Shown here in pieces: positions 6,000-64,000 of a stretch of DNA of 64,000 bases (positions are counted from its first letter, which is position 1; every line of letters begins with the position of its first letter). The DNA lies in the NCBI GenBank assembly GCA_902622745.1, contig CACNQW010000004.1, positions 6,326 to 70,325 on the forward strand. The letters are read 5' to 3'. A program made the position numbers and the translations under genes. This stretch comes from an uncultured SAR116 cluster alpha proteobacterium. GTDB taxonomy: Bacteria; Pseudomonadota; Alphaproteobacteria; Puniceispirillales; Marisalimonadaceae. The notes below the pieces were generated by a model that was not told the origin of the DNA, made no database searches, and was given only the letters and a program-made list of their open reading frames with translations.

Positions 6000-6386
6000 A
6001 TGAACCAAAATAGACCCTTATCACCTCATTTACAAGTTTATAAACCTCAAGTTACATCTGTTTTATCTATTTTTCATAGGATGACGGGTGTGGCTCTTAG
6101 TGCAGGATTGGTGTTACTGGTGGGGTGGATATTTTCGTTATCTTTAGGAGAAAATATTTTTAAATATTATGCTTATTTCTTAGATTCATGGTTAGGTCAT
6201 TTAATCATGTTTTCATTTACTTTTGCTTTGAATTATCATTTTTGCAACGGAGTGAGACATTTATTTTGGGATGCTGGATATGGCTATGAAATTTCTACTG
6301 TGTATAAAAGTGGCTTAGCGGTAGTTATAATTTCATTATTATCAACGTGTTTGATTTGGTATTTTATTTTGATAAACAATGCTTGA
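6000..6386 (+). CDS. sdhC: succinate dehydrogenase cytochrome b556 subunit
   Basis: RPLSPHLQVYKPQ signature, three TM helices, directly upstream of sdhDAB. Confidence 0.92.
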   Translation: MNQNRPLSPHLQVYKPQVTSVLSIFHRMTGVALSAGLVLLVGWIFSLSLGENIFKYYAYFLDSWLGHLIMFSFTFALNYHFCNGVRHLFWDAGYGYEISTVYKSGLAVVIISLLSTCLIWYFILINNA

Positions 6387-6738
6387 AACTAAGAATAAAT
6401 TTAATGAACCTCATAGTGGTATTTCTCATTGGAAGTTTCAAAGAATTTCAGCAATGATAAACATTCCATTAATAATATGGTTTATTATTTCCATTATATC
6501 TTTAAGAGATTATAGTTTTAATGAAAATATCAATTGGCTAAAGCAACCAATTAATTGCATTTTAATAACATTAATGTTAACTTCTGTTTTTTATCATTCA
6601 TCTTTAGGGCTTCAAGTTGTAATTGAAGATTACATTCATGATATAAAAATAAGAAAATTTTTGATTTTGTCTTCTAAAATTGGATTATTTTTGTTATTTG
6701 CCATTTCAATTGGATCGATAGTTAATATATATATATAA
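6379..6738 (+). CDS. sdhD: succinate dehydrogenase hydrophobic membrane anchor subunit
   Basis: Three TM helices. [15 protein letters not shown] matches the SdhD heme/quinone-site motif. 8-nt overlap with sdhC. Confidence 0.9.
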
Positions 6739-6758
6739 ATAAACAACCAAGGATTATT

Positions 6759-8549
6759 ATGACAAATTATGAAATAGTTGACCATGAACACGACGTAATC
6801 GTTGTAGGTGCAGGCGGGGCTGGTCTAAGAGCGACCGTTGGAATGGTTACAAAAGGTTTTAAAACTGCTTGTATTACAAAAGTTTTTCCAACAAGAAGTC
6901 ACACTGTTGCTGCTCAAGGAGGGATTGGCGCTGCTTTGAATAATATGGGCGAAAATGATAGTTGGAAATACCATATGTATGATACTGTTAAAGGATCAGA
7001 TTGGTTAGGTGATCAAGATGCAATTGAATATATGTGTAAAAATGCTATCCCTTCAGTAATTGAACTTGAAAATTATGGTGTTCCTTTTTCTAGAACAGAC
7101 GAAGGAAAGATTTATCAAAGGCCTTTTGGTGGTCATACTTTAGAGCATGGAAAAAGCATGGCGCGTCGTGCATGCGCAGCTGCAGATAGAACTGGTCATG
7201 CCATTTTACATACATTGTATCAACAATGTTTAAAACATGACGCAGAGTTCTTTATAGAATATTACGCACTAGACCTTTTAATGGATAAAGATGGTGCATG
7301 TAAAGGTATAATGGCTATAAGTCTAGAAGATGGAAAGTTGCACAGATTTAGAGCGCATAAAACTGTACTAGCTACTGGTGGTTACGGAAGAGTATACTTT
7401 TCATGTACTTCAGCTCACACTTGTACTGGAGATGGAAATGCAATGGTTTTAAGAGCTGGTCTTCCATTACAAGATATGGAGTTTGTTCAATTTCATCCTA
7501 CAGGTGTATATGGTGCAGGTGTTTTAATAACTGAAGGAGCAAGAGGTGAAGGTGGTTATCTAACTAACTCAGAAGGTGAAAGATTTATGGAAAGATTTGC
7601 TCCAACCGCAAAAGATTTAGCTAGTAGAGATGTAGTATCAAGAGCTATGACCATCGAAATAAATGAAGGTCGAGGGATTGGACCAAAAAAAGATCATATA
7701 AATTTACATTTGCATCACATCGATCCTGAAACTTTACATAAGAGATTGCCGGGTATAAGTGAAACAGCAAAGATATTTTGTGGTGTTGATGTTACAAAAG
7801 AACCAATACCAGTACTTCCTACTGTTCATTATAATATGGGTGGAATACCAACAAATTTCCATGGTGAAGTCTTGTCACCAACTGAAGACGACCAACATAA
7901 AGTTGTACCTGGATTAATGGCAATAGGTGAGGCTGCATGTGTTTCTGTTCATGGTGCAAATAGATTAGGTACCAACTCTTTACTTGATATAGTTGTTTTT
8001 GGACGTGCCGCTGCTATGAGAGCAAATGATACATTAAAAAAAGGTCAAAAACACTCATCTCTTAACAACGAAATATCAGATCAAATAATTGATCGTTTAG
8101 ATAAAGCTAGATTTTCAAAAGGTGATACATCTGTTGGTGAAGTAAGATCAGCGATGCAAAATGCTATGCAAAAACATGCAGCTGTTTTTAGATCAAACGA
8201 ATCCCTTCAAGAAGGGGTGCAAAAAATAGATAAAATTAGTTTGGATATGAAAAATGTTAGCGTTAAAGATAAATCTCTAATATTCAACACTGATTTAATT
8301 GAATCTCTTGAGTTAGAAAACTTGATGCAACAAGCAATTGTCACCATGAGATCAGCTGATCAAAGAAAAGAATCACGTGGTGCGCACGCTCATGAAAATT
8401 TCCCTAATAGAGATGATAAAGATTGGATGAAACATACAGTCATGTGGTTAGATAAAGATAAAAAATCAAAATTGTCGTATAGAGATGTAACATTGAATAC
8501 ATTGTCAAATGAAGTTTCAACTATACCGCCAGTTGCTAGGGTTTATTAG
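6759..8549 (+). CDS. sdhA: succinate dehydrogenase flavoprotein subunit
   Basis: [14 protein letters not shown] motif, SHTVAAQGG (covalent FAD His), [20 protein letters not shown]. Confidence 0.98.
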
Positions 8550-8564
8550 TAAGGAGAAGAATTA

Positions 8565-9341
8565 ATGGCTGAGTTTAGTTTACCTAAAAACTCAAAAATA
8601 ATAAAAGGCAAATCCTTTTCTTATAAAGGAAAGTCGGAAAATAAAAAAGAGTTTAACATCTACAGATGGTCTCCAGATGATACTGAAAATCCAAGAATCG
8701 ATACATATACTTTAGATATGGATGACTGTGGTCCTATGGTTCTGGATGCTTTAATTAAGATAAAAGATGAAATAGATTCATCTCTTACATTTAGAAGATC
8801 TTGTAGAGAAGGAATATGTGGATCATGTTCCATGAATGTTGACGGAACAAATACACTTGCTTGTTTAAAATCAATTGATGATGTTAAAGGTTCAGTTAAT
8901 ATTTATCCTTTACCTCATATGCCGGTTATAAAAGATTTAGTTCCTGATCTTACAAATGCATACAAACAACTTGAATCTGTAAAGCCTTGGTTACAAACTG
9001 ATGACAAACCTGTAAATGGTGAAGAAAGGCATCAAACTCCCAAAGAAAGAGAAAAATTAGACGGTCTATGGGAATGCGTACTCTGTTTTTCTTGCTCAAC
9101 ATCTTGTCCTTCATATTGGTGGAACGGCGATAAATACCTTGGACCAGCAGTTTTATTGCAAGCTTATAGATGGATTGCTGACAGCAGAGACACAAATAAA
9201 AAAGAAAGACTAAAAGAACTAGAAGATTCTTTTAAGCTTTATAGGTGTCATACAATTATGAATTGTACTAAAACGTGTCCTAAAGGTTTAAATCCTGCAC
9301 AAGCTATTGGTGAAATTAAAAAACTTCAATTAGAAACTTAA
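8565..9341 (+). CDS. sdhB: succinate dehydrogenase iron-sulfur subunit
   Basis: Three Fe-S cluster motifs: [52 protein letters not shown] upstream. Confidence 0.98.
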
Positions 9342-43135: not shown

Positions 43136-44503
43136 TTAACTAAATATTTTTACTTTATTTTTCAAATATATTAAGATTAATAATGACGGAATTACCATTA
43201 AAGCAGTTATTATAAAGAACACCCCCCAGTCACCTTCTAAGTAATCTACAATATTCCCTGACGAAGAAGCAAGTGTTGTTCTTCCAATTGTACCAATGGA
43301 AGCTAATAAAGCATATTGAGTAGCTGTATATTTTCTATTTACTAAAATAGAGATGAAAGCCACGAAAGCCACTGTTGCAAAAGCAGCAGCTATGTCATCC
43401 AATATTACAGCTATAGAAAAGATAAAATAATTTTTTCCTATCCAATATAAAATTGAAAATAAAATATTTGTTACTGCCATAAAAAGTCCAGCTATTAAAA
43501 CTGCTCTAAATAAGCCCAGTTTAATTGTAAAAACACCCCCTAAGAACGTAAATAGTATTGTGGTTATCCAACCTAACCCTTTTGAAAAAATACCAATGTC
43601 AGCCTTTGAAAATCCAATTTCTTTATAAAAAATTATTGACATTCTTCCAAGAAAAGCTTCACCAATTTTAAAAAGAAAAATAAATGATAATATCCCTAAA
43701 CTTATAGAAAGACCATTTTGTTTAAAAAAAGAATATATTGGGGCAACTAATGTTGAATAAACCCATGAAAAAATTTTTTTAATTTTATAATAATTATTTA
43801 GAAATACGTATTTTTTTGATGTAAACTTTAATTCAATCGTTTTATTACTAAAAGCTCTTTCATTGATTGTTAATAAAAAATAATTGAATATATTTATAAT
43901 GAAGAATAAGAAAAAAAAAGTAATTTGCCAGTAATTGTCATACCCTTGTTTATCAAAAAAGTCTGATATTGATAAAGATAATAAACCTCCAAGTTTAAAA
44001 CCAGTCCACCATCCAATTACAGCCATTGAAGCGCCAGCAGCCATAATGTTTTTTTCATGGATTTTTATTTGCTCAATCCTTAGAGCATCAATAGTGATAT
44101 CTTGTGTTGATGAAAAAATAGCAATCAATAAACCAATAAAGATTATTAAAAATAAATTCTCATTTGGATTTAAAAAAGACCAAATCAATAAAGCAATACC
44201 AATTAACAATTGCATTAAAAAAATCCATGATTTTCTATGGCCAATTTTGTTTGATAAATATGGTATTTTTAATTTATCAATTAATGGAGCCCATAGATAA
44301 TTGATTGCGTATACAGCAAAAATTAAACCTGCCCAGCCTACCGCACTTCTACTTAATCCGGCTTCTTTAAGCCACAAACTTAAGCTTGAACCAATTATTA
44401 CCCATGGAAATCCACTAATACATCCAAGGAGAAAAATTTTAAACATTCTTCTTTCTAAAAAAACTTTTAGACTGTTATAATTATTTTCTTTTAAGATTTT
44501 CAT
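43136..44503 (-). CDS. ampG: AmpG-family muropeptide MFS permease
   Basis: The N-terminal region LLGCISGFPWVIIGSSLSLWLKEAGLSRSAVGWAGLIFAVYAINYLWAPLIDK closely follows the AmpG consensus. 455 aa and polytopic. Confidence 0.85.
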   Translation of the reverse strand: MKILKENNYNSLKVFLERRMFKIFLLGCISGFPWVIIGSSLSLWLKEAGLSRSAVGWAGLIFAVYAINYLWAPLIDKLKIPYLSNKIGHRKSWIFLMQLLIGIALLIWSFLNPNENLFLIIFIGLLIAIFSSTQDITIDALRIEQIKIHEKNIMAAGASMAVIGWWTGFKLGGLLSLSISDFFDKQGYDNYWQITFFFLFFIINIFNYFLLTINERAFSNKTIELKFTSKKYVFLNNYYKIKKIFSWVYSTLVAPIYSFFKQNGLSISLGILSFIFLFKIGEAFLGRMSIIFYKEIGFSKADIGIFSKGLGWITTILFTFLGGVFTIKLGLFRAVLIAGLFMAVTNILFSILYWIGKNYFIFSIAVILDDIAAAFATVAFVAFISILVNRKYTATQYALLASIGTIGRTTLASSSGNIVDYLEGDWGVFFIITALMVIPSLLILIYLKNKVKIFS

Positions 44504-48010: not shown

Positions 48011-49117
48011 TCACTCCTCTTTTAATAAAATTTTCTGTAATGGATGTGTTTGTGTTTTTATAATTCTTTTGTTATCTAATTGTTTTATTAATATTTGTAT
48101 ATCTTGTTTTAAATTAAATAAATATGGGTACAATTCAATTGAAAGCGGTGATTTCCATTTCCATAATAAAATATCTAATGCATCAATTATTTTATTATCA
48201 AATTTATAATTCATTGTTTCTTCTGACTCTTCAAAATATGGTTTTTCGAAAAATTTATAAACTTTGAAAAATTCTTCAGGTATTTTTTGGTCAAGTATTA
48301 TTTTTTTCCAGTCTTCATATATATTTTTTGATTCCATAGTGCCATGAATAATTTTTAAGATTATGACATCAATATTTATTAAGCCAGTAAGATTAAACAT
48401 GAAATTTTTACTAATTTTAAAATCTGGTGGTGGGCCTAAAAAAATCCTTTTTGGACAATAATCATTAGAAAAATAATTACACCAATAAATTAACTTGTCA
48501 TCTTTTAATTTATCATTAATTTTTCTGTTTTTGCTATAGACATTGGAAGAAATAATTGTTTTGCCAGTATAGAAAATAAAAAAATTATCATTAATTATAT
48601 CTAAAAAATCATCCAAATAATTTTGACTATTATCTTCAATCTCATCTGAATAAACTCTGGGCACAACAATAAGTGGTTTTTTAAAATAAGCACTTAGTTT
48701 ATTACAGAGTTCAGCATGAAGCTTCCCTTCAGATTTATTTTGAAAAGATTTCTCTTCTATATCATCATATAATATAACTAACGATTTTGCTCCACAATGC
48801 TCTAACATCTGAAGTTTATTTTTTAAAATTGTAAAATCATCATTTCTGTAAGTAAAGTCAAAATCTAAGCCAGGACTTATGCCAATTATAATATTTATAT
48901 TTTTAGAATTTGCGTAATTACAAAATTTTTGAAAAGACCTCAGCCATATTTTAGGGTATTTTTTTCTCCAATCAAATCTATGCCTAATATCTTCTTTAGG
49001 TGCATAAAAATAGGAATTAAAGTTTAGTTCAGACAAATTTTTTATAATGGTTTTCCTTTGACTCCAAGTGAGGAGCTTTCCGTAAAAACCTTCAATATAA
49101 CCAATATTTTTTAACAT
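48011..49117 (-). CDS. glycoside hydrolase family 84-like protein (O-GlcNAcase/beta-N-acetylglucosaminidase-like), cytoplasmic
   Basis: GYIEGFYGKLLTWSQRKTIIKNLSELNFNSYFYAPKEDIRHRFDWRKKYP matches the GH84 N-terminal barrel. LVILYDDIE matches the catalytic Asp-Asp pair. YWCNYFSNDY...FLGPP matches the GH84 WWNFPVSDY...LLGP segment. No signal peptide. Confidence 0.75.
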   Translation of the reverse strand: MLKNIGYIEGFYGKLLTWSQRKTIIKNLSELNFNSYFYAPKEDIRHRFDWRKKYPKIWLRSFQKFCNYANSKNINIIIGISPGLDFDFTYRNDDFTILKNKLQMLEHCGAKSLVILYDDIEEKSFQNKSEGKLHAELCNKLSAYFKKPLIVVPRVYSDEIEDNSQNYLDDFLDIINDNFFIFYTGKTIISSNVYSKNRKINDKLKDDKLIYWCNYFSNDYCPKRIFLGPPPDFKISKNFMFNLTGLINIDVIILKIIHGTMESKNIYEDWKKIILDQKIPEEFFKVYKFFEKPYFEESEETMNYKFDNKIIDALDILLWKWKSPLSIELYPYLFNLKQDIQILIKQLDNKRIIKTQTHPLQKILLKEE

Positions 49118-50178: not shown

Positions 50179-50868
50179 ATTAAAATTCTAGCTATAGGTG
50201 CTCATCCTGATGACATTGAAATTTACATGTTTGGTTTGTTGTGTTTATTTAAAAAAAGGGGTGATAAAATCAATTCAATAGTTGCAACTGATGGTTCACT
50301 CGGTTCTGCTAAACCAGACCCCAAACTTGCTAAAGTAAGAGCAAATGAAACTAAACATGCATTAAAAGAATTATGTATTCCAACATTACTAGACATTAAA
50401 GATGGTCAACTTGGAAATCAAATATCTCATCAAAGAAAAATCTATAAAGAAATAAAAAAAATTGATCCAGATTTAATATTGACTCATTCAGAGAATGATT
50501 ATCACCCAGATCATAGAGCTTTATCCAGTATTGTAAAATCTATAGCAGGAATTTATTACCCAGTTTTATTTTGTGATAACTTTGTAGGAATAAATTTTAA
50601 TCCCAATTATTATGTGGACATTAGTGAATTTTTCCACCAAAAAAAAATTGCTATAAGCAGTCATAAATCACAAAAACCAGACAAATATATTGAACTTGTT
50701 GAAATCTGGAATCGTTTTCGTTCAGTTCAGTGCAATGGACCTGCGCAAACATATGTAGAAGCTTATAAATTTTTTCCTTCTTTCCCGTTTTCAGATATTA
50801 GAAATTTATTGCCTAATTCACCAAAGATAAGGCCTACATCTCTTAAAAAAAAAGGTGGATTAATTTAA
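50179..50868 (+). CDS. PIG-L/LmbE-family N-acetylglucosaminyl deacetylase, probable ATT start
   Basis: The frame is open from 50170 and encodes IIKILAIGAHPDDIEIY before the first ATG (50227). AHPDD is the Zn-binding PIG-L motif. HPDH lies further downstream. AGGAGG at 50168-50173 sits 5 nt upstream of ATT 50179. Confidence 0.7.
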   Translation: MKILAIGAHPDDIEIYMFGLLCLFKKRGDKINSIVATDGSLGSAKPDPKLAKVRANETKHALKELCIPTLLDIKDGQLGNQISHQRKIYKEIKKIDPDLILTHSENDYHPDHRALSSIVKSIAGIYYPVLFCDNFVGINFNPNYYVDISEFFHQKKIAISSHKSQKPDKYIELVEIWNRFRSVQCNGPAQTYVEAYKFFPSFPFSDIRNLLPNSPKIRPTSLKKKGGLI

Positions 50869-51953
50869 ATTTCTTTATAATTAATTACTTCTCCACCTAT
50901 TGAAGGTTTAACAACGCCAGTTGTAGTTGGAAATGTAATTGGCAATTGCTTTATTCTTCTTGCTGTAAGATAACAAATCATTTCAGCTTCAATTGTGTCG
51001 GGGTTAATTCCAAGATTTGTAGCAGAAAAAATTTTAGAATCACTATAGTTGATTAAGTTCTCCATTATAAAATTATTTTTGGCACCTCCACCTGAAATTA
51101 CACATGTTTGAGGTTTTTTTTTAAATTTGGATATTTCTAAAGCAATTGTTTTTACGGTAAATAATGAAAGAGTAGCTATTGTATCTTCAATTTTAGCATC
51201 TTTGAACAAATTTAAATATTTGTTGAAGTAATTTTTATCTAATGATTTTGGGTAATCTTGCTTGAAATAATCATCATCTAATAAGATTTTAAGTTTACTG
51301 AAATTAATATTACCACTATAAGCAAATTTACCATTCTCATCAAAATCAATCCCACGTTTTTCTTGAACAAATTTATCAATAAGACAATTACCTGGACCAG
51401 TATCAAAACCAATTAATTTTTTTTTATCACAGAAACTTATGTTTGTGATACCACCAATATTAATGAAGCAAGATGGAAAATTTAGTTTTTTTTCTTCAAT
51501 CAAAAATTTATGATAAATTGGAGAGATAGGGGCACCTTGACCATGAAGGCTTAAATCTCTTTTTCTAAAATCATAGACAACATCTTTTCTTAAAAGTTTA
51601 CTTAATAATTTTGCATTTCCTATTTGAATAGATTTAAATTTACTTGGCAAATGAAGAATTGTTTGGCCATGAAACCCTATGACTATAGGCTTATCCTTAT
51701 TTCTCTGGATAATTTTGTTTGCTGCTTTAAAATGATCATAAGTAATTTTTTCAGCCAATTCTTTGATGAAAGTTTTGTTTTTTATCAATTTTTCAGTATT
51801 TTTGTTTAATTTTTTAATTAAAAATTTTGTATTCTTATTATATTCAGCAACTAGTGTGTCAATAATATAAAATTTTTTTCTCCCATCTGTTTCAGCAAAA
51901 CATACATCTATCCCATCCATGCTGGTTCCTGACATTAAGCCAATAATTTTCAT
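50865..51953 (-). CDS. anmK: anhydro-N-acetylmuramic acid kinase
   Basis: From Met16 of the tracked ORF: MKIIGLMSGTSMDGIDV, the AnmK N-terminal signature. NIGGITN and DTGPGNCLID motifs. 4-nt convergent overlap with the PIG-L gene. Confidence 0.9.
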   Translation of the reverse strand: MKIIGLMSGTSMDGIDVCFAETDGRKKFYIIDTLVAEYNKNTKFLIKKLNKNTEKLIKNKTFIKELAEKITYDHFKAANKIIQRNKDKPIVIGFHGQTILHLPSKFKSIQIGNAKLLSKLLRKDVVYDFRKRDLSLHGQGAPISPIYHKFLIEEKKLNFPSCFINIGGITNISFCDKKKLIGFDTGPGNCLIDKFVQEKRGIDFDENGKFAYSGNINFSKLKILLDDDYFKQDYPKSLDKNYFNKYLNLFKDAKIEDTIATLSLFTVKTIALEISKFKKKPQTCVISGGGAKNNFIMENLINYSDSKIFSATNLGINPDTIEAEMICYLTARRIKQLPITFPTTTGVVKPSIGGEVINYKEI

Positions 51954-52034
51954 GGATGCTATAATATAGAAAATAGATAATGTTGTATACATTTTCACTT
52001 CTTTTAATTATAAATCATAATTGTTAGGTTATAT

Positions 52035-53039: not shown

Positions 53040-53907
53040 TAGAAAAGGCATTATACTTTCTGGAGGAACAGGATCTAGGTTATATCCAATAACTCAGGTT
53101 GTTTCAAAACAATTAATACCTGTTTTTGATAAGCCAATGATATATTATCCACTTTCAACTCTAATGAGCATTGGAATTACAGAAATTCTTATTATTACAA
53201 CGCCAAACGATTTAGACAAATTTAAATCTTTATTATCCAATGGCAATCAATGGGGGATTTCTATTGAATATCAAGTTCAAAAAAAACCTAATGGAATTGC
53301 TGAAGCTTTAATTATAGCTGAAAAATTTATTAAAAATAGTAATGTTGTTTTGATATTAGGAGATAATATATTTCATGGGAACGATTTACCAAATCGATTG
53401 AAAAAAGTTAGCATTGACGAAGAAACAGCAACAATTTTAGCTTACCCAGTGAAGAATCCGGATCAATATGGGATTGTAAATTTTGACAAAGATTTTAACC
53501 CAATTAGCTTAGAAGAAAAACCTCAAACTCCAAAATCAAAGTTTGCTATTACAGGGATGTATTTTTATGATAAAGAAGCTTGTAGTCTGGCAAAAAAATT
53601 ACTTCCTTCCAACAGAGGTGAACTTGAAATTACTGATCTAAATATAATGTATATGAAGCGTAAAAAGTTAAAAGTTTTTCTTTTAGATAGAGGAGATGTT
53701 TGGCTTGACGCAGGTACGCATATCACATTATCACAAGCTACTCAATATGTTCAAACAATTGAAGAAAGACAAGGAATGAAAATCTCTTGTCCAGAGGAAG
53801 TTGCATATAGATCAAATTTAATTGATAAAAATAAATTAAAACTTTTAGCCAAGAGATACTCAAATAATGACTATGGTAAATATTTATATAATCTGATTGA
53901 TACATGA
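53032..53907 (+). CDS. rfbA: glucose-1-phosphate thymidylyltransferase
   Basis: From the internal Met: MINRKGIILSGGTGSRLYPIT, KQLIPVFDKPMIYYPLS, LGDNIF, EITDLN. ATG at 53032 overlaps the rfbB stop by 8 nt. Confidence 0.95.
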   Translation: MINRKGIILSGGTGSRLYPITQVVSKQLIPVFDKPMIYYPLSTLMSIGITEILIITTPNDLDKFKSLLSNGNQWGISIEYQVQKKPNGIAEALIIAEKFIKNSNVVLILGDNIFHGNDLPNRLKKVSIDEETATILAYPVKNPDQYGIVNFDKDFNPISLEEKPQTPKSKFAITGMYFYDKEACSLAKKLLPSNRGELEITDLNIMYMKRKKLKVFLLDRGDVWLDAGTHITLSQATQYVQTIEERQGMKISCPEEVAYRSNLIDKNKLKLLAKRYSNNDYGKYLYNLIDT

Positions 53908-54449
53908 TTTTTTCTAAAACTAAAATTGTGGATGTATTTATAATAAAACCAAAACTTTTTCATGATGAAAGAGGTTTTTTTTATGAATCATGGAATATAG
54001 ATTATTTTAATAAAAAAGTAGGAAAAAATTTTTCTTTCATTCAAGAAAATGTTTCATTTTCAAAAAAAAATGTTTTAAGAGGACTTCATTATCAAGTTTC
54101 AAAACCTCAGGGTAAGTTAGTAAGTGTTTTTAATGGATCCATTTTAGATGTTGTCATTGATTTGAGAAAATCTTCAAAGACATTTGGCAAACATATTACC
54201 TATAAGTTATCTAGTAGGAATAAAGAATTACTTTGGGTTCCTCCAGGTTGTGCGCATGGGTTTTTAGTTCTTTCAAATTTTGCAAAAGTTTTATATCAGG
54301 TAACAGATAATTATTCACCCAATGATGAAAGATGTATTCTTTGGAGTGACCGAACTCTTATGATTAATTGGGGAATAAGAAATAAGCCAAAAATATCCCA
54401 AAAAGATAGCAAGGGCGTGACATTTTTAGAAGCAGAAAAATTCAAATGA
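53904..54449 (+). CDS. rfbC: dTDP-4-dehydrorhamnose 3,5-epimerase
   Basis: FHDERGFFYESW, LRGLHYQ, KLVSVFNGSILDVVIDLR, and PPGCAHGF motifs of RmlC. ATGA overlaps at both ends. Confidence 0.95.
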   Translation: MIFSKTKIVDVFIIKPKLFHDERGFFYESWNIDYFNKKVGKNFSFIQENVSFSKKNVLRGLHYQVSKPQGKLVSVFNGSILDVVIDLRKSSKTFGKHITYKLSSRNKELLWVPPGCAHGFLVLSNFAKVLYQVTDNYSPNDERCILWSDRTLMINWGIRNKPKISQKDSKGVTFLEAEKFK

Positions 54450-56053
54450 AGATAGTTGTATTCGGAGGTTATGGTCAACTTGGTTTAATTTTTCAAGAGT
54501 TAAATTTAAAAGAATTTGATTTACTTTTTTTTAAAAGAAAACATTTTGAAACTCAAAATTATGATCAAATATATAAATTAATAGAAATTCACAAACCTCA
54601 AGTAATTATAAATTTTTTAGCTTTTACAAATGTTGATCAATGTGAAATATCAAAAGAAAAAGCAATAGAAGCTAATTCAATTTTTCCAAAACACTTATCT
54701 ATTGCAGCAAAAAAACATTCCTCCTTTTTAATTCATATTTCTACAGATTATGTTTTTGGAGATAATTCCAAACAAAAATTATTAGAAAAAACTGATACAT
54801 TTCCAATTAACTTTTATGGAAAAAGCAAAAGAGACGGTGAACTTAACATTATCAAATCAAAATGTAATTATATAATTTTAAGAACCTCTTGGATATATAG
54901 TGACAAAAAAAATAATTTTTTTTTGACAATAAAAAAATTACTTGAATCTAACAAAAAAGTTATTTCTGTAGTCAATGATCAATTCGGCGCACCTACATCA
55001 GGATATGATTTTATTTTATCTTTAAAAAAAATCTTAGTTTCAATCAAGAAAAATAATTCTAAAAACTATCAGAAAAAAATTACTGGAATTTATCATTTGA
55101 CAAATGCTGGAGAAGGAAGTTGGTATAATTTTGCTTGTGAAATATCAAAAAATTTGGGATATGATTTTAGTCAAAGAATTGCTTCAATAAATTCAAATAA
55201 AATAAATAGATTGGCTAAAAGACAAACCAACTCTAGGTTAAGCAATAATAAAATTAAAAAAGTTTTTAATATAAATTTACCTAAATGGGAAAATAGTTTA
55301 AATATATTTTGTAAAGAAAAGTTTAGCATGAATACAGAATCTATTCCTGAAAAGTTTATTGACCATTTGATGTTGAAAGATAGTGTTAAACTGATGTTAG
55401 ATGACAAACTTCACGCTGTGAAAAAACTTTATGGTTGCATCAATGAAATTGAATTAATTGTTAATAAAATTTTTGATCATTTACAAAGCAACTCTAATTC
55501 AAGATTAATTTATGTTGGAGCTGGCACATCCGGTAGAATAGCAGTACAAGATGGTTCTGAGCTTTTCCCTACATTTGGATGGCCAAAATCACGAACAGAA
55601 TTCATAATAGCAGGCGGGTTAAAAGCTCTAACTCAATCTATTGAAAACTCAGAAGATGATATAAAATCTGCTAAAAAAATGTCAGCTGATAAAAAAATTT
55701 CTTCAAGTGATATTATTTTAGCAGTATCTGCTAATGGTAATACATTATTTACAAATGAGGTAATCAAATTTTCAAATAGCAGAAAAGCATTAACAGTTGG
55801 TATTACTAACAATCACAAGACTCTCTTGGAAAAAAACTCAAAACTCACATTAGTAGTTAATACTGGAGCTGAATTGGTTGCAGGCTCGACACGTTTAAAA
55901 GCTGGAACTATTCAAAAAATAGTACTTAACATTATATCTACACTGGTATTTGTAAAACTAGGTTGTGTAGAGCAAGGTCTCATGGTAAATATGCGACCTA
56001 GCAACTGTAAACTTAGAAAAAGAAAAAATCTTATTAACAAAATTTTGTCATAA
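54446..56053 (+). CDS. rfbD-murQ: fused dTDP-4-dehydrorhamnose reductase (aa 1-294) / N-acetylmuramic acid 6-phosphate etherase (aa 295-535)
   Basis: N-terminal half: FGGYGQLG, ISTDYVFGD, YGKSKRDGE (RmlD Y-x3-K). C-terminal half from ATG 55328: RLIYVGAGTSGRIAVQDGSELFPTFGW and GSTRLKAGTIQK (SIS-domain MurQ). No stop codon lies between the halves. Confidence 0.8.
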   Translation: MKIVVFGGYGQLGLIFQELNLKEFDLLFFKRKHFETQNYDQIYKLIEIHKPQVIINFLAFTNVDQCEISKEKAIEANSIFPKHLSIAAKKHSSFLIHISTDYVFGDNSKQKLLEKTDTFPINFYGKSKRDGELNIIKSKCNYIILRTSWIYSDKKNNFFLTIKKLLESNKKVISVVNDQFGAPTSGYDFILSLKKILVSIKKNNSKNYQKKITGIYHLTNAGEGSWYNFACEISKNLGYDFSQRIASINSNKINRLAKRQTNSRLSNNKIKKVFNINLPKWENSLNIFCKEKFSMNTESIPEKFIDHLMLKDSVKLMLDDKLHAVKKLYGCINEIELIVNKIFDHLQSNSNSRLIYVGAGTSGRIAVQDGSELFPTFGWPKSRTEFIIAGGLKALTQSIENSEDDIKSAKKMSADKKISSSDIILAVSANGNTLFTNEVIKFSNSRKALTVGITNNHKTLLEKNSKLTLVVNTGAELVAGSTRLKAGTIQKIVLNIISTLVFVKLGCVEQGLMVNMRPSNCKLRKRKNLINKILS

Positions 56054-59260: not shown

Positions 59261-60301
59261 ATGAATAAAGTTGCTCTTATAATTGGTATTACTGGTCAAG
59301 ACGGTTCATATTTAACAGAATTTCTTCTTAAAAAAAATTATATTGTTCATGGAATTAAAAGAAGATCATCTCAATTTAATACTTTCAGAATCGATCATCT
59401 TTATAAAGATCCTCATCTTGAAGGTGTTAGATTATTTTTACATCATGGTGATTTGACAGATTCATCAAATTTGGTGAGAATTATTGAACAAACTTCTCCT
59501 GACGAAATTTATAATTTAGGTGCTCAAAGTCATGTTGGAGTGTCATTTGAAAGTCCTGAATATACTTCAGACGTAAATGCGCTTGGAACTCTTCGAATTT
59601 TAGAAGCCATCAGAATTCTTGGTCTAGAAAACAAAACAAAACTATACCAAGCGTCATCTTCTGAATTATTTGGTAAAGTTCAGACAATACCCCAAAATGA
59701 AGAAACTAAGTTTTACCCAAGATCACCTTATGCAGTAGCAAAATTATACGCATTTTGGATTTGTGTAAATTACAGGGAAGCTTATAATATATTTGCATGT
59801 AATGGAATATTATTTAATCATGAATCACCTAGAAGAGGGGAAAACTTCGTTACTCGAAAAGTTACTCAAGGTTTGGTAAGAGTAAAATTAGGTCTCCAAA
59901 AAACTTTGTATATTGGAAACCTTGATGCAATGAGAGATTGGGGTCATGCTAAAGATTATGTAGAAATGCAGTGGCTCATGCTTCAAAAAGATAAACCTAA
60001 GGATTATGTGATATCTACTGGAATGAATTATAGTGTTAGAGATTTAATAAATCTTAGCTGTAAAATATTAAAAATAAATATTAAATGGGAAGGAAAAGGA
60101 GAAAGTGAGAAGGGATACGATGATAAAGGTCAATGTATAGTATCTGTTTCATCAAAATATTTTAGGCCTACTGAAGTTGATACTTTGCTTGGTGACTCCT
60201 CTCTTGCTCACAAGGAATTGAATTGGAAGCCAAAAATAACATTTCAAGATATGATAGAAGAAATGATTGATTGCGATTTAAGAATAATTGATAATAAATA
60301 A
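59261..60301 (+). CDS. gmd: GDP-mannose 4,6-dehydratase
   Basis: [39 protein letters not shown] (Y-x3-K), and [10 protein letters not shown] are all characteristic Gmd motifs. 346 aa. Confidence 0.95.
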
Positions 60302-60314
60302 GATAGGGTTTAAT

Positions 60315-61472
60315 ATGATTAAAGGTTACTTAGTTATTCCACTAGCTGGACTAGGTCAAAGATTTGTCGAAAAAGGTTATTCTTTGCCGAAACAGCTTTT
60401 ACCTATAAATGGAATTACTACGCTTGAATATTCACTTGATTCTATTGATGTGCCAAAAGATTTTCAAGTGATAATTCTAGCACGCAGCAGTTTTTTCACA
60501 ACTTATGATTTAAGACCTATATTTAAAAAAAAATTTGGAAACAATGTTAAATTTTTAGAGGTTTTTGAAAAAACAAGAGGTAGTTTAGAAACTTGTTTAC
60601 TTGCAGAAAAAATAATTAAAAAAGATGTTCCACTCCATATTTTTACTCTGGATGTAAATATTTATCCAAAAATTAATCTTTCTAAAATTTCTTTTGAAAA
60701 TGTTGATGGTAATATATCTATAGTTAAAATTAATAATAAAAATTTTAGTTATGTGGATATTGACAGAGCTAATTTTGTTTCACGGACTGTTGAAAAAGTG
60801 ATTATATCTAATTGGGGTATAACAGGCTTGTATTCATTTAAATCCTCAAAATTATTTTTCCAAATATCAAAAAAATATATCAATAATAATATAAATAAAT
60901 TAGATGGAGAATTCTATCTTGCTCCGATATATAACGAATACATTAAAAAAGGGTTTAAAGTTACTGTCAATAAAGCTTGGGGCTTATATTGCTTTGGGAC
61001 GCCTTCAGAATATGAATGGTGTAAGGCACATATAAAAGGATCTATTCAAACTATAGGTGTTGCTACAGATCATTCAGGATATTTTGAAAAAGAGAGATTT
61101 ACAGAATATCTTAAAAAGTTAAATTTCAAAGTTTTTGATGTGGGTTGTTTTTCAAATGCTGATTGTGATTACCCTGACTATGTTAACACATTATGTGACC
61201 TTATAAACAAAAAATTTGTAGATATTGGTTTTTCTTTTTGTAGATCTGGTCAAGGGGTAAATATTGCTGCCAATAAAAACCCAGGAATTTTGTCAGTAAT
61301 CTATTTGAATAATGATGATTTTAAAACATGTTTAGAACATAATAATCCAAATCATATATCAATCCCTTCAGAAAAAATTGATAATGTTTGTGAAAAAGAA
61401 TTTATAGAAATTTTAAAAAATACAGTTTTTGAAGGAGGAAGACATCAGGATAGATTGTCTTCTATGACTTAA
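60315..61472 (+). CDS. fusion protein: sugar-phosphate nucleotidyltransferase-like domain + RpiB/LacAB-family sugar-phosphate isomerase domain
   Basis: N-terminal VIPLAGLGQRF...LPKQLLPINGITTLEYSL resembles the G-x-G-x-R nucleotidyltransferase signature. The C-terminal part from about nt 61044, IGVATDHSGY...DYPDY...FCRSGQGVNIAANK...HNNPNHISIP, matches RpiB/LacAB (DHAG, C-x-x-G-x-G, IAANK). Confidence 0.65.
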   Translation: MIKGYLVIPLAGLGQRFVEKGYSLPKQLLPINGITTLEYSLDSIDVPKDFQVIILARSSFFTTYDLRPIFKKKFGNNVKFLEVFEKTRGSLETCLLAEKIIKKDVPLHIFTLDVNIYPKINLSKISFENVDGNISIVKINNKNFSYVDIDRANFVSRTVEKVIISNWGITGLYSFKSSKLFFQISKKYINNNINKLDGEFYLAPIYNEYIKKGFKVTVNKAWGLYCFGTPSEYEWCKAHIKGSIQTIGVATDHSGYFEKERFTEYLKKLNFKVFDVGCFSNADCDYPDYVNTLCDLINKKFVDIGFSFCRSGQGVNIAANKNPGILSVIYLNNDDFKTCLEHNNPNHISIPSEKIDNVCEKEFIEILKNTVFEGGRHQDRLSSMT

Positions 61473-61798
61473 TGATAATTAAAAACTTTTTACATTTTAA
61501 AGGTGGATGGATAGTTGGTAATTTCAAAGAATCTATTATTGATAATCCGAACTATGAAATAGGTATAAAAAAGCTTAAAAAAGGTTTTGTTGATAAACCA
61601 CATTATCATAGAGAAGGATTTGAATATAATCTTCTTATTGAGGGTAAATTAAAGCAAAAAGACAAAATAATCGAAAAAAATAATTTATTTATATTTGAGC
61701 CACTTGAAGTATCTTTTATTAGAGCATTAGAGGATTCAATTATTTTAGTTTTTAGAAATTACAGTAATCCTGAAGATAAATTTTTAAGTATTCAATGA
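61472..61798 (+). CDS. small cupin-fold protein (possible sugar isomerase/epimerase)
   Basis: 108 aa. The PHYHREGFEYNLLIEGKL region looks like a cupin metal/substrate motif. The start overlaps the upstream stop by 1 nt (TAATG). Confidence 0.5.
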   Translation: MIIKNFLHFKGGWIVGNFKESIIDNPNYEIGIKKLKKGFVDKPHYHREGFEYNLLIEGKLKQKDKIIEKNNLFIFEPLEVSFIRALEDSIILVFRNYSNPEDKFLSIQ

Positions 61799-61801
61799 TG
61801 T

Positions 61802-62791
61802 ATGGTTAAAAATAATAGATTAATTACTTTATGTGTTTTGACTAAAAATCAACATAAAAAATTAAAAAAATTAATTAAATCAATTTCTTTTATAAAAAAT
61901 AATCATGATGTAGAAATTCTTATATACGATGATAGTGAAATACCAAATAAAAAAAAGGATCTTCAAAATTTAACAAATATTAATTTGACTATTAAAGAAG
62001 GGAAAAAAGAAGGTATTGATAAAGCTGTAATAAATATAAGTACTTTAGCAGAGTCAAAATTTATTTGGTGGCTGGGGGATGATGAAATTTTCCCTAAAAA
62101 ATTAGACCACGTCATAAATATAATAAAGCAACATATCTCTTCTAACTTTTTTTGGGCAAATTATAAACGTGGAGAATTTAGCGGTATAAATCTATCTGAA
62201 AATAGATATTTTAAAGATAAAGATGAAATTTTGAAACTTGCTGGTTTAGGCCTTGGTTTTTGTTCTGCATTAATTATGAAAAAAAAAATTGTAACAGAAT
62301 CTTTAAAGACTGTAAGACCTTTTATAGGATCTTATTTTGTAACATTATATATTTGTATGTTTGTAATTATTAATAGTAAAAGGTTGTATTGTATATCAGA
62401 ACACATAATAAAAAATAAGCCTGCATCAAAAGAGGATTTTATTGAAAATATGATCGATAAAAATGGTGTGATAAATAATCCGGGATTTGAGATTTTTGGC
62501 ATAAATTCTATAAAGATATTCAATCACTTTGGGCATCACTTTGAAAAAAAAACTATAAAAAAAATTAAGAGAAAAATATTTAGAGATGCTTGGAAAGGTG
62601 TTATTGTGGGATGGATTGGTGGCTGGGATAGTCCCAAAGGTAAAACAAAATTAATATTTAATAATTATAAATTCATACCAGAAGCATATTTAGCAATTTT
62701 CTTACTAAATATTCCAAAATTTATTATAGTTTTATTATATAATATTTTTATGATCCCAAAAAAAGTTTCAATTTATGTTAGATCAAAATAA
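61802..62791 (+). CDS. glycosyltransferase family 2-like (GT-A) protein with C-terminal TM segment
   Basis: ITLCVLTKNQHKKLKKLIKSI, then YDDSE and WWLGDDE (DxD-type). C-terminal hydrophobic helix AYLAIFLLNIPKFIIVLLYNIF. Confidence 0.6.
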   Translation: MVKNNRLITLCVLTKNQHKKLKKLIKSISFIKNNHDVEILIYDDSEIPNKKKDLQNLTNINLTIKEGKKEGIDKAVINISTLAESKFIWWLGDDEIFPKKLDHVINIIKQHISSNFFWANYKRGEFSGINLSENRYFKDKDEILKLAGLGLGFCSALIMKKKIVTESLKTVRPFIGSYFVTLYICMFVIINSKRLYCISEHIIKNKPASKEDFIENMIDKNGVINNPGFEIFGINSIKIFNHFGHHFEKKTIKKIKRKIFRDAWKGVIVGWIGGWDSPKGKTKLIFNNYKFIPEAYLAIFLLNIPKFIIVLLYNIFMIPKKVSIYVRSK

Positions 62792-63737
62792 AAATAATAA
62801 ACTTACTCAAAGTCTCATTTGTTTATGCAAAAAACAAAAGTTAGTTAATTTAAAACCAAATTTGTTAAAGTGTGAGATTTGTCTAAGAGAATTTAAAAAA
62901 GAAAAAAATATTTATAAATTTTTACATAAAATAGATAAGTTTTATGAAGGCACTTATGATGGTGAAATTAAAAATATTCCGAACCCTAAAACTATATTTG
63001 GAAAATTTACCCTTTGGATGATTAATAGTGGTTATTTAAATCAAATTACAAAAAATATAAAATTTGGATCTAATATCTTAGAACTTGGATGTGCTGGTGG
63101 AGTAAGATATTTAGGTGAAAATTATAATTATGTTGGAATGGATTTGTCAGGTGTATCTCTAGAAAAATCTAATTCAAAAGCCGAATTTTTAATTCAAGGT
63201 AATTGTCTTGAAGGCATTCCTTTTGACGATAGCACTTTAGACGGTATTGTGAGTTCCTTTTTCTGGGAGCATATAAAAAGTAAAGATAAAGATTACTTGT
63301 TAGAAGAATTCCACAGGGTATTAAAGCCTAATGGTAAAATTGTTATGTTGTATGATGTAGCAACTTCAAACCCTTTTATTAATTTATTTAAAGAAAAGAA
63401 TAAAAATTTGTATAAAAAATTATTTTTAGACAGAGATATGCATGTCGGTTACGAAACTTTTGATAAAAATCGAAAAAGGTTTAAATCTAAAAAATTTGAG
63501 ATAGTAGACATTTTTGGATATGAAAAAACATTCATACAACCGCCAGCAACTTATGATAAATTACTTCATTTTTTTAAAAACAAAGAGTGTTTAATCAAAA
63601 TAAATGACAAAATATTCAAATTTAAGATTATATTATATTTCCAAACTTTTTTGGTTAGAGTTTTAGATGAATTATTTTCAAAAACATTACCAGATAAATG
63701 GTCAAGAACTTCAATGGTTATTTTAAAAAAGAATTAA
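62775..63737 (+). CDS. class I SAM-dependent methyltransferase with N-terminal Cys-rich (zinc-ribbon-like) segment
   Basis: SAM motif I ILELGCAGG. Post-I/II elements DGIVSSFFWEH and LKPNGKIVMLYD. N-terminal C-x-C...C-x-x-C (LICLCKK...LKCEICLREF). 17-nt overlap with the upstream gene. Confidence 0.75.
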   Translation: MLDQNKNNKLTQSLICLCKKQKLVNLKPNLLKCEICLREFKKEKNIYKFLHKIDKFYEGTYDGEIKNIPNPKTIFGKFTLWMINSGYLNQITKNIKFGSNILELGCAGGVRYLGENYNYVGMDLSGVSLEKSNSKAEFLIQGNCLEGIPFDDSTLDGIVSSFFWEHIKSKDKDYLLEEFHRVLKPNGKIVMLYDVATSNPFINLFKEKNKNLYKKLFLDRDMHVGYETFDKNRKRFKSKKFEIVDIFGYEKTFIQPPATYDKLLHFFKNKECLIKINDKIFKFKIILYFQTFLVRVLDELFSKTLPDKWSRTSMVILKKN

Positions 63738-63739
63738 AG

Positions 63740-64000
63740 ATGATTGTTGAAAAAAAAAAGGTTTTAATTACTGGAATTTTTGGACAAGATGGATGGTTTT
63801 TAACTAATTTATTAAAGAAAAAAAATTATTCAATTTTTGGAATTTTTAATAAAAAAAAGAATTATAAAGACGTTGAAAATAGTATCTATAATAATGTTAC
63901 CTTGATTGATGTTAATAAGTTAAATAACAATTCTTTATTATCATTAATAAAACAAAATAGTTTTGATGAAGTATATCACTTAGCAGCAAATGCTACTCCT
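63740..64000 (+). CDS. second Gmd-like NAD-dependent sugar dehydratase/epimerase (3' end outside the window)
   Basis: MIVEKKKVLITGIFGQDGWFLTNLL parallels the Gmd motif [12 protein letters not shown]. The frame stays open to the window edge (..EVYHLAANAT). Confidence 0.7.
   Translation, partial: MIVEKKKVLITGIFGQDGWFLTNLLKKKNYSIFGIFNKKKNYKDVENSIYNNVTLIDVNKLNNNSLLSLIKQNSFDEVYHLAANATP

Follow-up and report, generated by a model that had tools for sequence, protein, structure and literature searches.

The 64,000-nucleotide stretch of contig CACNQW010000004.1 analysed here (positions 6,326 to 70,325 of the forward strand; "the window") comes from an uncultured SAR116 cluster alphaproteobacterium. 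It encodes a 385-residue protein that joins a sugar-1-phosphate nucleotidyltransferase (NT) domain to an RpiB/LacAB-type sugar-phosphate isomerase domain. This fusion is a real but rare protein family, found mostly on marine phage contigs. Judged from sequence and gene order, it belongs to an uncharacterised, mostly phage-borne module that appears to be a third, non-homologous build of the isomerase/kinase/phosphatase/NT route to activated sugars. The fusion gene, its two domains and the cupin gene that follows it are arranged as listed below.

60315 (ATG)..61472, forward strand: NT-RpiB fusion, 385 residues; alternative TTG start at 60288
60330..61013, forward strand: N-terminal NT domain, RmlA/GalU type, 4EVW-like (residues 6-233)
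61053..61469, forward strand: C-terminal RpiB/LacAB-type isomerase domain, PF02502 (residues 247-385)
61472..61798, forward strand: monocupin, 108 residues; 1-nt overlap with the fusion stop codon (TAATG junction)

The ATG at 60315 is the likely start codon, because the sequence AGGG sits 8 nt 5' of it and the resulting N-terminus, MIKGYLVIPLAG, agrees with that of the homologs. An initial annotation, made from the nucleotide sequence, had described an NT-like domain and a full RpiB/LacAB domain in one open reading frame (ORF). All motifs quoted in it are present, namely IPLAGLGQRF (residues 8-17), LPKQLLPING (24-33), DHSG (252-255), FCRSGQG (308-314) and IAANK (317-321), and both domain assignments hold against PF02502, TIGR00689, 4EVW and RmlA.

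The RpiB domain reaches 102.4 bits with PF02502 (cutoff 24.7; E 2.5e-29) and matches the RpiB of C. thermocellum (CtRpiB; 3HE8/3PH3) with E 3e-21. Models of RpiB proper give the top NCBIfam scores, with 97.5 bits for TIGR00689, above its 88.3-bit cutoff, and 94.7 for NF004051, compared with 51.5 for LacB and 22.6 for DerI. The rpiB equivalog cutoffs are missed (TIGR01120, 79.1 bits versus 138.65; NF004051, 94.7 versus 135). The CtRpiB residues D8, H9, Y42, C65, T67, H98, N99, R132, H133 and R136 correspond to D252, H253, Y286, C309, S311, H342, N343, R376, H377 and R380 of the fusion. In an alignment of 29 fusions, these catalytic and phosphate-binding residues are kept in 25 to 29 of the sequences, and position 311 is Ser or Thr. 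The domain has the same fold as the RpiB/AlsB enzymes (e.g., C. thermocellum 3HE8 and E. coli 1NN4), whose active sites are built across subunits, and also their complete catalytic set of Asp-His, Tyr, the Cys base, Ser/Thr, His-Asn and Arg-His-Arg. It differs from them in being fused to an NT domain and in its catalytic loop, which reads C-R-S-G-Q-G-V-N instead of C-G-T-G-I/L-G-x-S, with Q313 and N316 being invariant and family-specific.

The NT domain (residues 6-233) matches PDB 4EVW with E 3.6e-19 and rmlA_long with E 2.6e-6 over residues 16-232. It also aligns with the window's own RmlA along 198 residues of the catalytic core, in which the GxGxR motif, the Lys of PKQL, the catalytic Asp and the E-K...GITGxY segment are all covered. 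PF00483, a domain carried by some of the homologs, is not matched by the window protein at E<=0.01. The closest solved relative, 4EVW, is a structural genomics entry from Vibrio cholerae named 'nucleoside-diphosphate-sugar pyrophosphorylase' and, unlike the fusion, is a standalone protein of 255 residues without an isomerase domain. G12, R16, K26, D113, E160 and K161 are invariant in the alignment of fusions. The conservation of both active sites indicates that both halves are under selection as enzymes.

A word-indexed search returned 49 full-length homologs with 33-60% identity, nearly all of them from marine metagenomes. The conservation of both domains together in at least 49 homologs argues that their joining is not due to chance. 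A frameshift or assembly artefact is ruled out, as at least 49 independent homologs, among them those of two complete phage genomes, have the same architecture. An exhaustive profile search over 1.84 billion representatives revealed only about 55-60 clusters (50% identity representatives) that cover the two domains. On its own, the NT domain is common (2,257 matches at E<=1e-30), in proteins of standalone, tandem NT-NT or HAD-NT architecture. Only six copies of the full-length fusion were found in a set of 185,579 species-representative genomes. One of them is in a Prochlorococcus single-cell genome and two are on contigs of metagenome-assembled genomes (MAGs) with a phage-like appearance. A scan of IMG/VR gave 592 relatives, and about 38 of the best 80 are full-length fusions. 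Several fusions lie on contigs of 160-260 kb that carry genes for ribonucleotide reductase (RNR), DnaB, primase and UvsX. Cultured cyanophages with the fusion are Synechococcus phage Bellamy (gp206) and SynMITS9220M01.

Some of these loci (referred to by L numbers) show features of their own. The MAG contigs L011 (Methanobacteriota) and L012 (Crocinitomicaceae) resemble mis-binned phage DNA; L012 and the IMG/VR locus L042 are one contig, and the proteins of L011 are 74-80% identical to those of the cyanophage-type module. In a Brocadiaceae MAG (L014, 543-2798), where the DNA is high in GC, the fusion was called as a 751-residue protein whose N-terminal extension is rich in Arg and Pro. This ORF is probably over-extended, and the true start is likely to be near residue 365. 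On a 260-kb phage-like contig (L008/L009, 1-1106), the RNR large subunit holds an intein with a LAGLIDADG domain.

In GenBank phage records, the fusion is labelled 'phosphatase' and the cupin 'hypothetical protein', while in PHROGs 'unknown function' is given for the fusion, the cupin, the GDPD-like protein described below and a further neighbour, cluster 3. A literature search for 4EVW, for RpiB combined with a nucleotidyltransferase and a cupin, and for RpiB in ribofuranose clusters yielded nothing relevant; the one rpiB match was a catabolic phosphotransferase system locus. The rarity of the family and these records agree with the initial view that the fusion is not a described enzyme.

The gene context of the fusion is conserved. 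ORFs were called and clustered in all retrieved loci, and partners were counted over 47 non-redundant fusion loci. The most frequent partners are the following.

PfkB-like kinase: 38 of 47 fusion loci
KdsC-like HAD phosphatase: 38 of 47 fusion loci
HRG (GDPD-like) protein: 33 of 47 fusion loci
Cupin: 32 of 47 fusion loci

The typical viral order is a KdsC-like HAD (~178 residues), the PfkB-like kinase (~223 residues), the fusion, the cupin (~106 residues) and the HRG protein (~155 residues). An FkbM methyltransferase, cluster 3 (phrog_13607, ~246 residues), a GDP-mannose 4,6-dehydratase (GMD) and glycosyltransferases come next. The kinase gene mostly lies within 15 bp of the fusion gene. In phage Bellamy, the fusion, the cupin, the kinase, the HAD and the GDPD-like protein are available as gp204-207 and gp213. 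The kinase of locus L053 clears the Pfam PfkB cutoff (29 bits versus 25.8), and that of L002 is likewise a PfkB match. The HAD is of the KdsC/YrbI type (3N1U, E 3.6e-10; TIGR01670, E 6.6e-13). The GDPD-like protein gave no match when a single sequence was searched against the PDB, but its family profile did match the catalytic half of GDPD structures (3I10, E 3.9e-7; 7E0V, E 3.4e-5). With ~150 residues, it amounts to roughly half a GDPD barrel, and its HR, ExD and HD motifs are invariant (H6, R7, E35, D37, H49, D50). The frequent neighbour cluster 3 matched nothing in the PDB or NCBIfam.

The initial annotation had noted that no kinase or phosphatase is visible. This holds for the window, as a tblastn search of it for the kinase, HAD and GDPD-like partners gave nothing at E<0.01. 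It turns out to be an effect of the window edge. A cupin with 96% identity (P0052) led to a Tara scaffold (L104) that is 97.7% identical to window positions 60918-64000 and extends ~5 kb further. Beyond the window end, L104 encodes a GMD paralog (332 residues), an HRG/GDPD-like protein (150 residues), a KdsC-like HAD (173 residues) and a PfkB-like kinase (239 residues). The kinase contains VGAGDFF and was assigned to the PfkB-like kinase family by hhalign with 98.5% probability (E 3.4e-15). Because this near-identical scaffold continues with the kinase, HAD and GDPD-like genes, the module is almost certainly complete in the organism of the window. A ~420-residue Methyltransf_13/14 protein, of the type that C-methylates nucleoside diphosphate (NDP)-4-keto-sugars, is encoded in L104 (6665-7948) and recurs near the module as cluster 19 in L008, L026, L032, L033, L036 and L039. 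Its recurrence suggests C-methylated deoxysugars in these glycans.

The two domains could also be functionally uncoupled. The RpiB domain would then only raise the supply of ribose-5-phosphate and phosphoribosyl pyrophosphate (PRPP) in cyanophages that rewire the pentose-phosphate pathway, and the NT domain would have been fused to it by an accident of gene order. Cyanophages are known to carry pentose-phosphate-pathway genes, and RpiB-only matches occur in other phages. This reading is nevertheless highly improbable, as the fusion persists over 33-60% identity, in cells and phages, and always in glycan clusters beside the kinase and the HAD. The invariant loop residues Q313 and N316 in turn suggest a specialised RpiB domain.

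It is proposed instead, with about even chances of being correct, that the fusion provides the first and the last enzyme of a self-contained route to a nucleotide-activated sugar, consisting of an isomerase, an anomeric kinase, a terminal phosphatase and an NT. The PfkB-like kinase, the KdsC-like HAD, the RpiB domain and the NT domain map one-to-one on a known strategy. The domain identities, the conservation of the catalytic residues and that of the gene module are established here, and the order of the steps, the regiochemistry of the kinase and the phosphatase, the sugar and the nucleotide are inferred. First, the RpiB domain would interconvert a ketose phosphate and an aldose phosphate, most likely D-ribulose-5-phosphate and D-ribose-5-phosphate. 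The divergent PfkB-family kinase would then phosphorylate the anomeric hydroxyl group to give a sugar 1,n-bisphosphate, and the KdsC-type HAD would strip the terminal phosphate, leaving a sugar-1-phosphate; a pentose would be ring-locked as a furanose. Finally, the RmlA/GalU-type NT domain would join the sugar-1-phosphate and a nucleoside triphosphate to form an NDP-sugar, in this case an NDP-pentofuranose. The cupin is placed in this scheme as a coupled accessory. The truncated GDPD-like protein would be a second accessory and, speculatively, could hydrolyse 1,2-cyclic-phosphate breakdown products. In the bacterium, the neighbouring glycosyltransferases and methyltransferases would use the product for a cell-surface glycan, while in cyanophages it would serve a phage-directed glycan modification.

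Entry at the level of a pentose-5-phosphate is favoured for three reasons. The models of RpiB proper score best, the full ribose-5-phosphate-type active site including the phosphate-binding triad is retained, and the NT family pairs with two unrelated pentulose-5-phosphate enzymes in cyanophages. With the 5-phosphate in place, a pentose closes only as a furanose, which points to an NDP-pentofuranose as the product.

A different use of the same enzymes would be the activation of a ketose or alditol phosphate. Here, the RpiB domain would deliver a ketose phosphate, the PfkB kinase would act at C1, as in LacAB/LacC, and the HAD would take off one of the phosphates. From the result, the NT domain would form an NDP-linked ketose or polyol phosphate in the manner of CDP-ribitol or CDP-6-fructose (TarI-like), which would be transferred as a phosphodiester, and the GDPD-like protein would reflect phosphodiester chemistry. 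RpiB-family and PfkB-family enzymes are indeed partners in the tagatose-6-phosphate pathway, weak matches to IspD models occur at the N-terminus of the NT domain and in its relatives, and a GDPD-superfamily protein is a core partner. This scheme is improbable all the same. The alignment of the NT domain with RmlA runs from one end to the other and takes in the sugar-1-phosphate region E-K...GxTGxY, and rmlA_long is matched over residues 16-232. A reductase is not consistently present, and a kinase together with a phosphatase would be a wasteful way of shifting a phosphate on an open-chain ketose.

The four-step logic of the favoured route has precedents. Heptose pathways use GmhA as isomerase, then HldE, HldA with HldC or HddA with HddC, and the phosphatase GmhB, with DmhA and DmhB acting downstream; the kinase domain of HldE belongs to the PfkB family. 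The initial annotation had drawn an analogy to the GDP-heptose pathways, and for their logic of isomerase, kinase, phosphatase and NT the conserved synteny bears this out. The similarity to the ADP- and GDP-heptose pathways extends to a PfkB-family anomeric kinase (as in the HldE domain), an HAD phosphatase, and adjoining GMD-like and RMD-like short-chain dehydrogenases/reductases (SDRs). The components differ, as the isomerase is RpiB instead of the SIS-fold GmhA and the HAD is of the KdsC type instead of the GmhB type. The NT is GT-A/RmlA-like, as in HddC and unlike the cytidylyltransferase-like HldE. No SIS-fold GmhA is present in the module, and the only nearby SIS domain is MurQ-like and fused to RmlD. 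A heptose as the actual sugar, which the initial annotation had implied, is not supported. The RpiB domain keeps the complete active site of the ribose-5-phosphate type, the NT family pairs with other pentulose-5-phosphate enzymes, and the substrate of the module is probably not sedoheptulose-7-phosphate.

A second precedent is the phage pathway to UDP-arabinofuranose (UDP-Araf), described for HY126, RB69 and DLP3, which leads from ribulose-5-phosphate through Araf5P, Araf1,5P2 and Araf1P to UDP-Araf and employs an SIS arabinose-5-phosphate isomerase, the NT-kinase fusion AfhE and the HAD AfhF (PMC13326640). It has the same four steps (isomerase, anomeric kinase, 5-phosphatase and NT), is also phage-borne, and likewise places two non-consecutive steps on one polypeptide. 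Fusing non-consecutive steps therefore has precedent in both HldE and AfhE. In the present module, in contrast, the isomerase has an RpiB instead of an SIS fold, the kinase is PfkB-like instead of APH/choline-kinase-like, the NT is fused to the isomerase instead of the kinase, the HAD is of the KdsC type, and there are two extra components, a cupin and a GDPD-like protein. The setting differs as well, with glycan genes (GT2, GT11, WavE, ABC exporter) here and DNA hypermodification there. The module families are RpiB, PfkB and a 4EVW-like NT; homology to AfhE and the SIS arabinose-5-phosphate isomerase was not found, and only the logic is common. By these comparisons, the parts of the route appear non-homologous to those of both the heptose and the UDP-Araf pathways.

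The NT family also occurs in other arrangements in cyanophages. The 475-residue protein SWZG_00042 of phage S-SKS1 (L105, 5995-7419) is a 4EVW-like NT fused to a full DHBP synthase (RibB; PF00926, 219 bits), an enzyme that uses ribulose-5-phosphate. Its gene is followed by those for a small HAD, a transaldolase/FSA-family protein and a GT1, and the locus possibly encodes a further uncharacterised route, by which ribulose-5-phosphate would be turned into an activated sugar. In phage Bellamy, a parallel module (gp211-219; L103, 13935-19149) adjoins the first. It comprises an Aldolase_II/AraD-family protein, a small HAD, an HRG/GDPD-like protein, cluster 3, a GHMP kinase, a 116-residue Cupin_2 protein, a 216-residue NT and two SDRs. 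Between the two Bellamy modules lie gp209, a tandem NT-NT protein of 524 residues, and gp210, a GT61. On cyanophage-like contigs, the NT family occurs most often behind an N-terminal beta-phosphoglucomutase-like HAD, in fusion proteins of ~450-460 residues (L060, L074, L077, L089, L094, L097 and others in IMG/VR). These HAD-NT proteins usually precede an FkbM methyltransferase and two cluster-3 proteins.

The cupin gene of 108 codons, whose 1-nt overlap with the fusion gene was part of the initial annotation, is confirmed by the TAATG junction, which suggests translational coupling of the two genes, and by cupin motif 1, G(X)5HXH(X)4E(X)6G. The motif reads GFVDKPHYHREGFEYNLLIEG, and H44, H46 and E51 are invariant. 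The window cupin matched no Pfam or NCBIfam model, and its family comprises 1,206 clusters. An AF2 model was built from a 63-sequence alignment, with a predicted local distance difference test (pLDDT) score of 94.9. A Foldseek search with it gave 256 PDB matches at E<=1e-3, all of them cupins. The top matches are the minimal phosphomannose isomerases (PMIs) 7ZVM and 7ZVY from Thermococcus (~105 residues; E 8e-6, TM 0.65), with CapF (rank 5), KdgF and generic cupins close behind. Profile matches to cupins acting on NDP-sugars are weak (WxcM/FdtA-like 4ZU4, E 0.029; CapF, E 0.012). The association of an NT with a small metal-type cupin is shared with type II PMI/GDP-mannose pyrophosphorylases and the minimal Thermococcus PMIs. 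In contrast to these, the identity of the cupin is 18-20%, which is at noise level, its motif 2 lacks the fourth His ligand, and no PMI family model was matched. The cupin may be a second, PMI-like isomerase that interconverts aldose and ketose with inversion at C2 (e.g., ribose to arabinose), or an NDP-sugar tailoring enzyme. The assignment as an NDP-sugar epimerase in the initial annotation is tentative; the closest folds, albeit by a weak match, are minimal PMIs. An RmlC 3,5-epimerase is ruled out, since the window has its own rmlC (53904-54449, 181 residues) and the 108-residue cupin matches no RmlC model. In locus L076, an 874-residue protein (6420-9044) consists of an N-terminal region of ~520 residues without assignment, an NT domain and the same small cupin. 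This C-terminal fusion ties the cupin to the NT domain rather than to RpiB.

The genes flanking the fusion and the cupin in the window are the following.

59261..60301, forward strand: gmd, GDP-mannose 4,6-dehydratase (TIGR01472, 555 bits, cutoff 415; PF16363, E 3e-146)
61802..62791, forward strand: family-2 glycosyltransferase (PF00535, E 7.9e-6)
62775..63737, forward strand: S-adenosylmethionine-dependent methyltransferase (PF08241, E 9.8e-13)
63698..64000, forward strand, running past the window end: GMD-family paralog SDR, N-terminal 101 residues

The glycosyltransferase is a candidate user of the module product. The gmd gene directly upstream of the fusion and the GMD paralog, which scores 211.6 bits with TIGR01472 and thereby stays under the 415-bit cutoff, confirm that Gmd-type dehydratases adjoin, as annotated initially. 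Relative to the fusion pathway, gmd may represent a separate branch or a downstream step.

The latter would suit a GDP-hexose or GDP-heptose route, in which the module makes a GDP-linked pyranose of the GDP-heptose or GDP-mannose type from sedoheptulose-7-phosphate or a hexulose-6-phosphate. The gmd product would dehydrate it, the cupin (FdtA-, CapF- or MlghB-like) would isomerise or epimerise it, and the GMD paralog (RMD/DmhB-like) would reduce it, with methylation to follow. The gene order of gmd, fusion, cupin, glycosyltransferase, methyltransferase, GMD paralog, GDPD-like protein, HAD, kinase, methyltransferase and C-methyltransferase mixes both gene sets, and true GMDs (at least 40% identity to that of the window) recur within 6 kb in 11 of the 47 loci. 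There is no manB or manC within the window, the PfkB kinase and the HAD mirror HldE and GmhB, the cupin has its weak profile similarity to 4ZU4 and CapF, and an NT with a cupin recalls the type II PMI-GMP enzymes. To our knowledge, however, all characterised RpiB/LacAB enzymes yield 2R aldoses (ribose, allose, galactose, erythrose) and not manno-configured sugars. The phosphate-binding Arg-His-Arg triad is in the RpiB position, which fits C5/C6 substrates, and the further partners of the NT family (RibB, AraD-like) indicate pentoses. Only some of the loci have a GMD nearby, and GMDs are common in any glycan island. Overall, the GDP-linked route is considered unlikely, albeit the main alternative.

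Returning to the pentose route, a specific product can be proposed only tentatively. The module would make NDP-D-ribofuranose, or NDP-D-arabinofuranose with the cupin as the C2-inverting isomerase, for the decoration of surface glycans by marine cyanophages and a few marine bacteria. The cupin would then be a new type of pentose-phosphate isomerase, and the mini GDPD-like enzyme would clear or recycle cyclic-phosphate by-products of the unstable furanosyl nucleotide. We know of no description of an NDP-ribofuranose donor; where bacteria are known to incorporate ribofuranose, it comes from PRPP or polyprenyl-phosphoribose.

Several points weigh against the four-step pentose route. No member of the fusion family is known to have been characterised biochemically. 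PfkB kinases are also active on other positions, namely C1 of ketose phosphates (LacC, PfkB) or the 5-OH group of ribose, and KdsC-type HADs normally take sugar acids with eight or nine carbons. Ribose-5-phosphate is abundant in cells, and the benefit of an RpiB step is not obvious. The kinase and HAD of the window organism are deduced only via the close relative L104. The cupin is missing from about a quarter to a third of the loci, and its fold matches are non-discriminating (E about 1e-5, TM 0.65). Frequently, gmd, GMD paralogs, C-methyltransferases and aminotransferases also stand in between the genes of the module, and such enzymes act on GDP-4-keto-6-deoxy-hexoses or heptoses, not on pentofuranoses.

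If the proposal is correct, the module would be the third independently evolved version of a strategy that turns central metabolites into activated sugars, after the heptose and phage UDP-Araf pathways. It would also provide functions for the abundant viral families of 'unknown function' phrog_3980, phrog_24762 and phrog_34507, as well as for the cupin family. A pentofuranosyl nucleotide as product would be a new glycosyl donor, useful in glycoengineering. The question bears on the remodelling of host or virion glycans by marine phages, as well as on streamlined marine bacteria and their hypervariable glycan islands. The presence of the module in the cultured Synechococcus phages Bellamy and SynMITS9220M01 makes it directly testable.

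The window itself is cellular, as it contains leuC, sdhA, sucA, htpG, a membrane pyrophosphatase gene and ampG; its GC content is about 0.25-0.34. Apart from the module, it holds a second fusion. A 535-residue ORF (54446-56053, forward strand) joins a complete RmlD (residues 1-290), a dTDP-4-dehydrorhamnose reductase (TIGR01214, 226.6 bits), to a MurQ-like SIS domain (residues 302-528), an N-acetylmuramic acid-6-phosphate etherase (NF003915, 235.7 bits). Peptidoglycan-recycling genes are found nearby on the reverse strand, namely ampG (43136-44503), a NagZ-like gene (48011-49117) and anmK (50865-51998). In view of these neighbours, the RmlD-MurQ fusion may connect the rml operon, at its end, to a recycling gene.

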